A DNA stretch of 64,000 nt, from the sequence record MZ170040.1. One strand, 5' to 3'. Under the pieces are notes generated by a model that was given only the letters and a program-made list of their open reading frames with translations, ran no database searches and was not told where the DNA came from. How positions within the stretch are numbered: position 1 is the stretch's first letter; the number at the start of each line of letters is the position of its first letter. Origin of the DNA: Escherichia phage vB_EcoM_FJ1. A program made the translations under genes and the position numbers. Shown here in pieces: positions 15,972 to 51,987 of this stretch.

Positions 15972-17174
15972 TTATTTTGTAATAATGTCAAACTGTTCTT
16001 TAAAACAGAAGCTTGAATCTTGATGCTGATACAAAAATTCATATGCTTTTTCTCGCTCACGGTCATAAAGAGCTCGGTCAGATGACAGTTCTTTAATACG
16101 CTCGAATGTTGATTCCATGTCATTTTCATCAAACCAAATGATACCGCTATCATGCGAGGTCAAAGGAGTATTATCAACACGGAATTTTAAATTTTCGCCA
16201 GTAGATTTCCAGAAAACAGGAATTGTACCGCAAGCACCTAATTCAAGATGAGTATATTCTAGTGAGCGTTGTAAGTATTTCTGGTTAAGTTTACTCAACT
16301 GATATCCAAAGCCAGATTTACTCATTCGTTCAAGCATTTCACTATTAATATAACAATCTAGGATTTGTGCCGGTTGATTCGGCGTGAGATTCATTTTATC
16401 GATCTCACGATTACCGTAATATTCATACGGAATACCTTTTTCCTTAATTGCAATAAAAGCAGGGGAACGTTCAAGACCTTCCATTACAGTGGATTTACCA
16501 GCAGGTTTTAAGAATTTTTCGTGAAAATCAAACATCTGGTAAAAACCTTTCCATGTAGTCGTACGACCAATCCAACGATTGATATTCATGTTAATTTCAG
16601 AAACATCTTTCCAGTAGGTTGATCGAACTTTCGCAATATCCATAGGAGGCTGAAAGTTATATACGGTCGGTGCTTCTTCAATATCATCAAACAGAGAAAC
16701 AGTTTCTGGATACCATTCTTTCATCAAAACTTTATTAAAATCGCCATTATCAGAATGACTAAAAATAACATCAGCTCGACGAACAGTTTCTTCTAATCCC
16801 AAATTTCGACGCAAAGAAAGAACAGAATGATCATGCTGATAAACTACAACACGAATAGAAGGTTTAATATTATCTAAAAGTTTTTTATAGTTATTAATCG
16901 TGGCTTCTTGAACGGAAGTAGCAGGAACAGAATTAATAATTAGAATATCACAATCATTTACCAGCTTAAGTGCTTTATCGTATTCTTTAGCTAAAATAAC
17001 TGGAATTGAAAATGATTTGTGGTCATGAGAACTTGTACGAGTAAATGATTTATCTTTAGCATAAACCAAAGTTACTTCATGACCATTCTTAATAAACCAA
17101 TCACGTTGCTCAAGAGAAAATTTAGTTACACCACAACCTTCAAGACCTCGAGCCATAAAAATACATACTTTCAT
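15972..17174 (-). CDS. a-gt: DNA alpha-glucosyltransferase
   Basis: 400-aa ORF, near-identical to T4 alpha-glucosyltransferase as recalled (MKVCIFMARGLEGCGVTKFSLEQRDWFIKNGHEVTLVYAK...). Confidence 0.9.
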   Translation of the reverse strand: MKVCIFMARGLEGCGVTKFSLEQRDWFIKNGHEVTLVYAKDKSFTRTSSHDHKSFSIPVILAKEYDKALKLVNDCDILIINSVPATSVQEATINNYKKLLDNIKPSIRVVVYQHDHSVLSLRRNLGLEETVRRADVIFSHSDNGDFNKVLMKEWYPETVSLFDDIEEAPTVYNFQPPMDIAKVRSTYWKDVSEINMNINRWIGRTTTWKGFYQMFDFHEKFLKPAGKSTVMEGLERSPAFIAIKEKGIPYEYYGNREIDKMNLTPNQPAQILDCYINSEMLERMSKSGFGYQLSKLNQKYLQRSLEYTHLELGACGTIPVFWKSTGENLKFRVDNTPLTSHDSGIIWFDENDMESTFERIKELSSDRALYDREREKAYEFLYQHQDSSFCFKEQFDIITK

Positions 17175-50193: not shown

Positions 50194-50215
50194 GCCCCAA
50201 CCTTTCGGTCGGGGC
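50194..50215 (-). terminator. hairpin terminator (copy 2)
   Basis: GCCCCAACC-TTTC-GGTCGGGGC; ends the stable-RNA/tRNA-Arg transcript region. Confidence 0.55.
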
Positions 50216-50530
50216 TAAGCCTTGCGGCAACCTTGTCGGGGTTCCACCTGCTAAGGCAAGTGTTTGTACGAAACGCCGGGACTTGAACCCGGTTATTAAG
50301 TAGTTGACGCTACTCAATATTTTTAAAAGGCCATATCTCGACCATATCCGAACGTTCCGTCAAAAACGCTACTCGGCTTACGGCAAAGATATTTCCTCGA
50401 ATCGATAATTCGGTGCGCCGTTTCTGCTGTGATGTAAGAGGGCATCAATAAACGCAAAGATTATTAACGCAATTCCTTACTCAGGGAGCATCAGTCCGAC
50501 GACTTACCGGTAGCGACCCGGTTTCTTGTC
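50216..50530 (-). ncRNA. stable small RNA region downstream of tRNA-Arg (T4 rnaC/rnaD-like), including a tRNA-like element
   Basis: About 315 nt with no ORF between tRNA-Arg and a terminator; minus strand 50359-50266 has a 7-bp acceptor-like stem (CGGAACG/CGTTTCG) and T-arm CCGGG-TTCAAGT-CCCGG but no canonical anticodon arm. Confidence 0.4.
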
Positions 50531-50607
<77 letters not shown>

Positions 50608-50610
50608 TAG

Positions 50611-51276
50611 TTAAAATTTCATTTTTCGACCTTTAAACCATCCTTCTGGAATTGGGTCAGTTTTCTTAATACGTTTAGAAACTTTTTCATCTAATGAATG
50701 AATCCACATCATACCAAATTGGGAATTCTTTTCACCTTTTTGGTGATTATTTTTAGCATGAATTTCTTTCATTTTATTAATAGTTTCAAGAGTATGATGC
50801 TTATTTAAAAATCGGCTATTATTTAAAAATTTTTCTTTGTATTCAGGAGTTGACCACAAACGGTTAAATACATTTGAACCATTTTTACGATATTTTTCTT
50901 GAAGTAAAATATCATTTTTAAAACGTGACTTAAACGATTTAGCTCCTTTTAAACTAGCGTCTTTCTTCTGATTTAGCATCTCAGGAATATTTATATGATC
51001 CCATCCACCTTCACCGCCAAGTTTTAAATTATACACATCAGGTCTATTTAAAAACTCTTCTGTGACAATATTTTTCTCGGCTTCAAGCATAGATTCTTTA
51101 TCATCAAAATACTCTAATATTTCTTTAGAAAAATTTTCTATGCCATACTTATCTTGGGCTCTTTTTAATAATTTACCAGAACCCATATATCCATCATCTA
51201 AATTTTCGGTAGAATGCACACCAATATAAATTTTATTATTAATTTTATTTGTTATTTTATAAAGATAAAAATGCAT
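50611..51276 (-). CDS. segB: GIY-YIG homing endonuclease SegB-like
   Basis: ATG at 51276 gives 222 aa beginning MHFYLYKITNKINNKIYIGV (GIY...YIG); lies inside the tRNA cluster as T4 segB does; the longer track ORF would overlap tRNA-Tyr. Confidence 0.7.
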   Translation of the reverse strand: MHFYLYKITNKINNKIYIGVHSTENLDDGYMGSGKLLKRAQDKYGIENFSKEILEYFDDKESMLEAEKNIVTEEFLNRPDVYNLKLGGEGGWDHINIPEMLNQKKDASLKGAKSFKSRFKNDILLQEKYRKNGSNVFNRLWSTPEYKEKFLNNSRFLNKHHTLETINKMKEIHAKNNHQKGEKNSQFGMMWIHSLDEKVSKRIKKTDPIPEGWFKGRKMKF

Positions 51277-51322
51277 ATCAGTCCCTAATAAAGAACTGAG
51301 CGTCTCACGACGAGTCATAAAT

Positions 51323-51409
51323 TGGTGGGGAGTGGTGGAGTCGAACCACCCGAGTCGCAATGACAATGGATTTACAGTCCACACCGCTACCTCTACGGGA
51401 TAACTCCCC
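51323..51409 (-). tRNA. type-II tRNA, anticodon GUA (tRNA-Tyr)
   Basis: Manual fold: acceptor GGGGAGT/ACTCCCC, anticodon loop CTGTAAA, long variable arm, T-arm GGTGG-TTCGACT-CCACC, CCA encoded; resembles E. coli tRNA-Tyr (GACUGUAAAUC, GUCAU). Confidence 0.65.
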
Positions 51410-51418
51410 TAATTAATT

Positions 51419-51495
51419 TGGTGACCCAGACCAGATTTGAACTGGTAACCTTTCCCTTATGAGGGGACTGCTGCTAACCATTGAGCTACAGGGCC
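51419..51495 (-). tRNA. tRNA with CAU anticodon (Ile lysidine-type, or Met)
   Basis: Acceptor GGCCCTG/CTGGGTC with one U-U mismatch, anticodon loop CTCATAA, T-loop TTCAAAT, CCA encoded; same position as T4 tRNA-Ile. Confidence 0.6.
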
Positions 51496-51496
51496 T

Positions 51497-51572
51497 TGGT
51501 GCTGATTGACGGAATCGAACCGCCGACCTTCTCATTACAAGTGAGTTGCTCTACCTACTGAGCTAAATCAGC
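51497..51572 (-). tRNA. tRNA-Thr (UGU)
   Basis: GCTGATTTAGCTCAGTAGGTAGAGC...CTTGTAAT...GGTTCGATTCC...AATCAGCACCA; canonical cloverleaf. Confidence 0.85.
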
Positions 51573-51574
51573 AA

Positions 51575-51661
51575 CGGAGGCGATAGGATTTGAACCTATG
51601 AGTCGCCGGAGCGACTGCCGGTTTTCAAGACCGGTGCATTAAACCACTCTGCCACGCCTCC
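51575..51661 (-). tRNA. tRNA-Ser (UGA), type II
   Basis: GGAGGCGTGGCAGAGTGGTTTAATGCACCGGTCTTGAAAACCGG... with long variable arm; matches T4 tRNA-Ser as recalled. Confidence 0.9.
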
Positions 51662-51663
51662 AG

Positions 51664-51737
51664 TCTCCGTGGCAGGATTTGAACCTACGACATTCTGCTC
51701 CCAAAGCAGACGCTCTACCAAACTGAGCTACACGGAG
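51664..51737 (-). tRNA. tRNA-Pro (UGG)
   Basis: Acceptor CTCCGTG/CACGGAG, anticodon loop TTTGGGA, T-loop TTCAAAT. Confidence 0.85.
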
Positions 51738-51747
51738 TAAATTAAAT

Positions 51748-51821
<74 letters not shown>

Positions 51822-51826
51822 AAATT

Positions 51827-51913
51827 TGGTGCGAGAAGTGGGACTCGAACCCACATGGAAATCATTCCGCAGCATTTTAAGTGCTGTGCCTTTACCAATT
51901 TGACCATTCTCGC
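51827..51913 (-). tRNA. tRNA-Leu (UAA), type II
   Basis: GCGAGAATGGTCAAATTGGTAAAGGCACAGCACTTAAAATGCTGC... with long variable arm; matches T4 tRNA-Leu as recalled. Confidence 0.9.
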
Positions 51914-51914
51914 G

Positions 51915-51987
51915 CTGGGAATAAAGGACTCGAACCTTTGCATCCTGGAATCAAAATCCAGTGCCTTACCAACTTGGCTAATTCCCA
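51915..51987 (-). tRNA. tRNA-Gln (UUG)
   Basis: Acceptor TGGGAAT/ATTCCCA, anticodon loop TTTGATT, T-loop TTCGAGT; abuts tRNA-Leu. Confidence 0.85.

Follow-up and report, generated by a model that had tools for sequence, protein, structure and literature searches.

The closest described relatives of the gene examined here are found in T-even and T5-like phages. A tRNA-Tyr gene is listed in the tRNA region of phage T2L, and a cut by the homing endonuclease SegB, which co-converts flanking tRNA genes, was mapped within it (Brok-Volchanskaya et al. 2008, NAR; PMC2330249). Azam et al. (2024) reported that host tRNA-Tyr is depleted by the PtuAB effector of retron-Eco7 and that the tRNA-Tyr of a T5-like phage restores infection against this system, a rescue that is abolished when the anticodon is changed (PMC11555353). 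A structural paper from 2025 located the retron-Eco7 cut between U47 and C48 in the variable arm of tRNA-Tyr, and found that SP15 tRNA-Tyr escapes cleavage and that its own variable arm is required for inhibition of the system (PMC12673091). For Septu EcB88, Chihara et al. (2026, Nat Commun; PMC13096335) described cuts in E. coli tRNA-Tyr at C48/A49 and in T6 tRNA-Tyr at C48. In that study T6 was rescued by overexpressed T6 tRNA-Tyr, overexpression of the phage tRNA-Tyr partially protected the host tRNA-Tyr, and deletion of a tRNA-rich region sensitised T6; T4, which does not have tRNA-Tyr, was unable to escape, and T2 resisted Septu EcB88 while T6 did so only partly. T6 escapers carried SegB-dependent tandem repeats of a 718-bp unit containing tRNA-Tyr and a SegB that is 28 aa shorter, and the authors, who found T6 tRNA-Tyr to be relatively unstable, left undecided whether it serves as "decoy or supplement". 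One structural study could not reproduce the cleavage of tRNA-Tyr by retron-Ec78 PtuAB in vitro (PMC12819146).

We analysed a 64,000-nt stretch of Escherichia phage vB_EcoM_FJ1 (sequence record MZ170040.1; hereafter the window, to which all coordinates refer unless another locus is named) that carries a tRNA-Tyr gene of this kind. A first-pass annotation had proposed a class II tRNA with a GUA anticodon and Tyr identity within the phage tRNA cluster. This gene is already known: Escherichia phage UPWr_E4 (Tequatrovirus) matches the window segment at 100% identity and has the gene annotated as tRNA-Tyr, BP32 is identical at this locus too, the gene is also annotated in T2, T6, and hundreds of relatives, and the function of the T6 orthologue has been published. 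We focus on its fold, its lineage, its genomic setting, and the function that these suggest.

Identity and fold of the tRNA-Tyr gene

ARAGORN called nine tRNAs in the window (Gln, Leu, Gly, Pro, Ser, Thr, Met/Ile(CAU), Tyr, and Arg), every one of them encoded on the minus strand, and placed tRNA-Tyr (gta) at exactly 51323-51409, as an 87-nt gene with an encoded CCA; the class, anticodon, and identity proposed in the first-pass annotation thus stand. The sequence, written by structural element, is GGGGAGU-UAUC-CCGU-AGAGGUA-GCGG-U-GUGGA-CUGUAAA-UCCAU-UGUCAUUGCGACUCG-GGUGG-UUCGACU-CCACC-ACUCCCC-A-CCA. From the sequence and from covariation among homologues, we assign on the minus strand a 7-bp acceptor stem (51409-51403 / 51333-51327), a 4-nt connector UAUC (51402-51399), a D stem CCGU/GCGG (51398-51395 / 51387-51384), the anticodon GTA (51375-51373, also called by ARAGORN), a 15-nt variable arm (51365-51351, with C48 at 51362), a T arm (51350-51334), the discriminator A (51326), and CCA (51325-51323). 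The gene has the general features of a cloverleaf, including a 7-bp acceptor stem, D, anticodon, and T stems, a 7-nt anticodon loop, and a T loop that fits GTTCRANYC, and its variable arm is long, with a 3-bp GUC/GAC stem and a 5-nt loop. A resemblance to E. coli tRNA-Tyr had been noted on first inspection, and the anticodon loop CUGUAAA is identical to that of tyrT; each of the 5426 complete E. coli genomes contains the tyrT sequence used for this comparison, at 100% identity and with a tRNA-Tyr annotation. TyrRS recognises its tRNA through the identity elements G1-C72 and discriminator A73. Both are present here, and the G1-C pair and the discriminator A are invariant in 14/14 aligned homologues.

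Thermodynamic folding of the bare 87-mer did not give a cloverleaf as the minimum-energy structure (z = -1.5), and because this approach was uninformative we used covariation instead. The alignment comprised 14 sequences, namely the window, T6, T2, and eleven other phages (rV5-like, Karamvirus, Moonvirus, Phapecoctavirus, two T5-like, two FelixO1-like, Jiaodavirus, a Hafnia phage, and an Enterococcus phage). Across it the cloverleaf was paired in 99.1% of cells, a value that dropped to 44-60% when the partners were slid against each other. Both-sided, compensatory changes were found in 15 of the 24 pairs, and none of 500 shuffles reached the observed values. All five helices covary, including the variable-arm stem, in which each of the three pairs does so, and the D stem CCGU/GCGG is 100% paired, with a C-G pair replaced by U-A in the T5-like phages. 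Given that compensatory changes accompany the conservation of this tRNA-Tyr lineage in at least seven phage groups, its fold is under selection. Two other structural assignments were considered and rejected. In an E. coli-like D-arm register (U8 A9, stem UCCC/GCGG), pairing is limited to 66% of cells, and every one of the 14 sequences has a C x C mismatch at the middle pair. The Rfam model RF00005 gives 30.3 bits against a gathering score of 29, with an alignment that is mis-registered by 2 nt at the 5' end, and we did not adopt the structure that it implies, in which the long connector is accommodated through a 2-nt displacement of the acceptor stem. Together, these results identify 51323-51409 as a real class II tRNA-Tyr(GUA) gene.

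A long connector in a phage-borne lineage

In canonical tRNAs the acceptor and D stems are joined by a connector of two nucleotides, positions 8 and 9. The connector of the window tRNA-Tyr has four (UAUC), and it measures 4-5 nt in all of the homologues, that is, in the 14 of the alignment and in another 44 distinct variants, drawn from viral contigs of IMG/VR, that share the same layout while carrying seven different, fully complementary acceptor stems. In this lineage UA is invariant and is followed by 2-3 variable nucleotides, such that the connector reaches five nucleotides in some relatives; phage SP15 tRNA-Tyr has the same layout. The weak Rfam score reflects this long conserved connector and not gene decay, and we attribute to the same oddity that ARAGORN missed five of the 88-nt relatives, that a related gene in one genome is annotated as "tRNA-Pseudo-GTA", and that SP15 tRNA-Tyr is annotated as a truncated gene of 75 nt. 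The unusual connector thus leads tRNA finders to under-score these genes, to miss them, or to call them "pseudo". We found no discussion of it in the tRNA-Tyr literature cited here, and it may merit attention from researchers working on tRNA structure and on tRNA-targeting defence. One could suppose that the altered geometry of the elbow and core is itself an adaptation, one that would change recognition by tRNA-targeting defence nucleases or modification enzymes and would keep charging by TyrRS, but we regard this as rather unlikely.

To place the gene in a broader context, we surveyed phage, plasmid, and cellular sequences. Homologues occur in 1341 phage records, 509 of them at >=95% identity, and the enterobacterial members of the lineage include T4-like, rV5-like, T5-like, FelixO1-like, and Phapecoctavirus phages as well as phage-plasmids. 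A strict family pattern matched 110 viral contigs in IMG/VR and had no match among 185,579 bacterial and archaeal species, each represented by one genome. A looser version of the pattern gave a single match in the same 185,579 representative genomes, at 799-839 of a 10-kb Odoribacter splanchnicus MAG contig (CAVFMG010000103) that may be phage-derived. A blastn search likewise returned no chromosomal E. coli match, and with this result and the absence of strict-pattern matches in the representative genomes we reject a host origin for the gene. All 273 E. coli matches (88-93% identical) lie on plasmids of 70-120 kb. In the one plasmid that we inspected, NZ_CP024264, the phage-type tRNA-Tyr (16133-16219) sits in an Asn-Tyr-Thr-Ser tRNA cluster near genes for DNA ligase, PhoH, and an integrase, and this plasmid looks like a phage-plasmid. 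The homologue in Enterococcus phage EA1 (positions 301-382 of its locus), which infects a Gram-positive host, is 77.6% identical and has the same connector and D arm, together with a variable loop that is shorter, TGCAA in the T loop, and no CCA in the gene; such closeness is unexpected given that the hosts belong to different bacterial phyla.

The tRNA cluster, segB, and the T4 locus

The tRNA-Tyr gene lies where it had first been placed, between tRNA-Ile(CAU) (51419-51495, minus strand; labelled Met by the software) and segB (51276-50611, minus strand). Upstream, the seven T4-type tRNAs Gln, Leu, Gly, Pro, Ser, Thr, and Ile(CAU) occupy 51419-51987 on the minus strand (ARAGORN and Rfam), and the region 52100-51422 is 95.8% identical to T4. 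Between tRNA-Ile(CAU) and tRNA-Tyr there is a spacer of 9 nt, AAUUAAUUA (51410-51418, minus strand). No promoter-like site that would separate tRNA-Tyr from the upstream tRNAs was found in this spacer or nearby, and we therefore rejected a promoter of its own; given also that the spacer is too short for a separate promoter, tRNA-Tyr appears to be read as the last gene of the transcript that begins with tRNA-Gln, which would make it the eighth gene of a Gln-Leu-Gly-Pro-Ser-Thr-Ile transcript.

The segB gene starts 46 nt downstream of tRNA-Tyr and encodes a GIY-YIG homing endonuclease of 221 aa (Pfam GIY-YIG, 26.8 bits) in which the catalytic Y17 and G19 are present (...NNKIYIGVHS...); it is identical to T6 SegB at 218/221 residues and to T4 SegB at 210/221. 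Directly after it, as in T4 and T6, follows tRNA-Arg(UCU) (50531-50607, minus strand; ARAGORN and Rfam). Two copies of the motif ATTAG bound the tRNA-Tyr/segB unit on the minus strand, one across the 5' edge of tRNA-Tyr (51409-51413) and one in the 3' part of segB (50691-50695), some 26-28 codons before the stop, a position that agrees with the truncation of SegB in the T6 amplicon. The two copies are exactly 718 bp apart both in the window and in T6 (T6 locus positions 1497/2215), and the window holds a single copy of the unit. A microhomology of at least 6 nt, TCACCAAA, occurs at a spacing of 678 bp and was rejected, as it is not the T6 junction and the 718 bp are matched by the 5-nt ATTAG.

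Several further features of this region were recorded. A 9-bp hairpin is predicted over the AGGGA Shine-Dalgarno sequence of segB (51278-51299, minus strand), and the T4 counterpart (T4 locus 1692-1732; -19.4 kcal/mol, z = -6.7) is much stronger and also covers the segB start codon. The sequence upstream of segB is unrelated between the window and T4, yet both have a Shine-Dalgarno hairpin, which suggests that translation of segB may be masked in a conserved manner in read-through tRNA transcripts. The published SegB cleavage-preference motif RAWTSGAAC has five matches in the 64-kb window, all on the plus strand, including the T arms of tRNA-Thr (51512-51520) and tRNA-Gly (51763-51771), and the T arm of tRNA-Tyr, GTTCGACTC, is one mismatch away from it. 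Downstream of tRNA-Arg, the stretch at 50200-50530 (minus strand) is GC-rich and evidently structured, with a tRNA-like T arm GGGTTCAAGTCCCGGCG, and matched no Rfam family at the gathering threshold; it presumably corresponds to the T4 small stable RNAs rnaC/rnaD ("species 1/2").

Comparison with the homologous T4 locus bears out the reading of tRNA-Tyr as a ninth tRNA beside eight T4-type ones: T4 has eight tRNAs there and no tRNA-Tyr, and the window cluster consists of T4's eight plus Tyr. Homology with T4 breaks off where tRNA-Ile ends and picks up again within the first part of segB, and the two homologous stretches are separated by 55 unrelated bases in T4 versus 159 in the window. We looked for a remnant of tRNA-Tyr in these 55 nt and found no meaningful alignment. 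The T4-type junction, in which tRNA-Ile is directly followed by segB, was found in 22 records, mostly T4 isolates, and the junction of the window and T6 in 23; in most of the other T4 relatives, tRNA-Tyr stands in contexts like that of T2. Because most T4 relatives possess the gene, T4 is the exception in lacking it, and the textbook reference is in this respect the outlier. The T-even tRNA cluster is mosaic more generally: in T6, ARAGORN finds neither Pro nor Ser and misses the annotated Thr, and the T2 cluster is without Thr and segB and has Asn and an extra ORF between Ser and Met.

Proposed function and comparison with known systems

We consider it probable that the gene is a functional orthologue of the T6 and T2 tRNA-Tyr that forms the eighth gene of a T4-type cluster upstream of segB, that it supplements tRNA-Tyr when PtuAB-type nucleases attack, and that its dosage is raised by SegB. 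Expression, charging, and an anti-defence effect in the window phage are proposed by analogy with T6 and T5. Under this model, tRNA-Tyr would be transcribed with the Gln-to-Ile tRNAs and excised by host RNase P and 3' processing, with CCA already encoded, and host TyrRS would probably charge it, given that it carries the bacterial Tyr identity set of G1-C72, A73, G34/U35, and a long variable arm. Selection would favour it mainly for providing more tRNA-Tyr when a nuclease of the PtuAB type (Septu EcB88 or retron-Eco7) cuts the variable arm after infection. The first-pass annotation had suggested that extra phage tRNAs may replace host tRNAs cleaved by anticodon nucleases; replacement agrees with the T6 and T5 experiments (PMC13096335, PMC11555353, PMC12673091), but PtuAB cuts the variable arm and not the anticodon. 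Around the published cleavage sites (between U47 and C48, and C48/A49), the variable-arm stem GUC/GAC and the GUCAU sequence are the same as in E. coli tyrT. We rejected the reading of the gene as a nuclease-resistant variant, since its anticodon loop and cleavage-site sequence equal those of the host; anticodon loop, variable-arm stem, and GUCAU are all host-like. With GUC followed by A at the cleavage site, as in the host, the tRNA would be expected to work by dosage, through supply and perhaps partly as a decoy, and not through resistance to cleavage, because its variable arm is host-like and is not the GACUC-GGAA-GGGUC of SP15. The window keeps every sequence element of the T6 tRNA-Tyr/SegB module, namely the variable arm with its GUC-A site, an intact SegB, and the ATTAG pair at 718 bp, and SegB could raise dosage through tandem amplification of the 718-bp tRNA-Tyr/segB unit between the two ATTAG microhomologies. 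The tRNA-Tyr gene alone does not decide the outcome, because T2 and T6 differ in resistance although their tRNA-Tyr genes are nearly identical.

Other explanations of the gene's role differ in how well they account for these observations. Compensation for codon bias, the other role raised in the first-pass annotation, could be the main function in an AT-rich phage that uses far more Tyr codons than its host, with defence evasion being incidental. Across the 16,077 codons of 75 window ORFs, Tyr codons make up 4.49% (TAT 35.4 and TAC 9.5 per 1000). In E. coli K-12 they account for approximately 2.8% (TAT ~16 and TAC ~12 per 1000). That tRNA-Tyr of this lineage is common among T4 relatives, as the 509 records at >=95% identity attest, also fits this explanation, and a high load of tyrosine codons may well make the gene beneficial in a secondary way. 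However, T4, whose codon usage is the same, grows well in the absence of tRNA-Tyr, and because TAT and TAC are both read by one GUA tRNA, it corrects no rare-codon mismatch, unlike tRNA-Ile(AUA) and tRNA-Arg(AGA); the phenotype demonstrated for T6 and T5 is, moreover, specific to defence (PMC13096335, PMC11555353). We judge codon supply as the main function to be possible but doubtful.

Less probable still is that the tRNA serves chiefly to divert the nuclease, as a decoy or sponge, and takes little part in translation. The cleavage of T6 tRNA-Tyr by Septu EcB88 at C48, like that of the host tRNA, the partial shielding of host tRNA-Tyr on overexpression, and the wording of the T6 authors all leave room for such a role (PMC13096335), and the non-canonical connector of 4-5 nt could impair normal tRNA function, but the loss of rescue when the anticodon of the T5-like homologue is changed points to decoding (PMC11555353), and the lineage conserves Tyr identity elements, an encoded CCA, and a host-type anticodon loop, none of which a pure decoy needs. 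Finally, the gene adjoins that of a homing endonuclease by which flanking tRNA genes are co-converted (PMC2330249), as would be expected if it were a passenger or a decaying pseudogene carried by SegB homing without a function of its own, and the marginal Rfam score of 30.3 bits, the "tRNA-Pseudo-GTA" label of one relative, and the several 88-nt relatives missed by ARAGORN could be taken as signs of decay. This is highly improbable: the five helices keep their pairing through compensatory changes across phage families, which effectively excludes a pseudogene, the low scores are due to the conserved connector and not to broken stems, most copies in T4 relatives sit in contexts without segB such as that of T2, and the T6 orthologue is expressed and active (PMC13096335). 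Supplementation of tRNA-Tyr against PtuAB-type nucleases therefore remains our preferred explanation. The gene matters little for the annotation of this genome, and its relevance lies in predicting which E. coli strains that carry PtuAB-type defences fall within the host range of therapeutic T4-like phages.

Compared with the tRNA-Tyr of the host (tyrT/tyrU/tyrV), the window gene shares class II architecture, the CUGUAAA loop, G1-C72, A73, the GUCAU of the variable arm, and an equal length 5' of the anticodon, and yet it is identical to E. coli tyrT at only 59/89 aligned positions. The E. coli tRNA has a 2-nt connector, a 3-bp D stem, and a 9-nt loop, whereas the window tRNA has a 4-nt connector, a D stem (CCGU/GCGG) displaced by 2 nt from its place in E. 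coli, and a 7-nt D loop, and its variable loop is 5 nt long versus 3 in E. coli. The T5-like genes of SP15 and T5 belong to the same lineage, with the same anticodon loop, T arm, and D arm with a 4-5-nt connector (PMC11555353, PMC12673091), and they follow the same logic of replacing a depleted tRNA-Tyr. SP15 differs in having a longer variable arm, GACUC-GGAA-GGGUC, that is not cleaved by retron-Eco7, and a strong promoter of its own, whereas the window tRNA-Tyr has a host-like GUC/GAC arm and no promoter of its own and would, by analogy with T6, depend on dosage.

The T-even genes are the nearest of all, and the comparison called for at the outset shows near-identical genes in T6 and T2 and none at the T4 locus, with the identity remaining Tyr. 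In T2 and T2L, tRNA-Tyr (85/87 nt identical) likewise follows the tRNA with a CAU anticodon in the same cluster and contains the mapped SegB cleavage site (PMC2330249); it has one further change in the T stem, and it is followed by tRNA-Asn and tRNA-Arg without segB, whereas the window tRNA-Tyr is followed by segB. In T6, the gene is identical at 86/87 nt (98.9%) and stands in the same order of tRNA-Ile(CAU), tRNA-Tyr, segB, and tRNA-Arg (PMC13096335), with the same variable arm, including C48, and the same ATTAG pair at 718 bp. The only base that differs in both T6 and T2 is at position 41 (51369, minus strand), which is C here and U there, such that pair 31-41 is G-C in the window and G.U in the other two, outside the variable-arm cleavage site; the window phage also keeps tRNA-Pro and tRNA-Ser, which are absent from T6. 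In light of these comparisons, the window phage is a "T6-type" T-even phage that carries the tRNA-Tyr/SegB module shown, in T6, to overcome Septu immunity.
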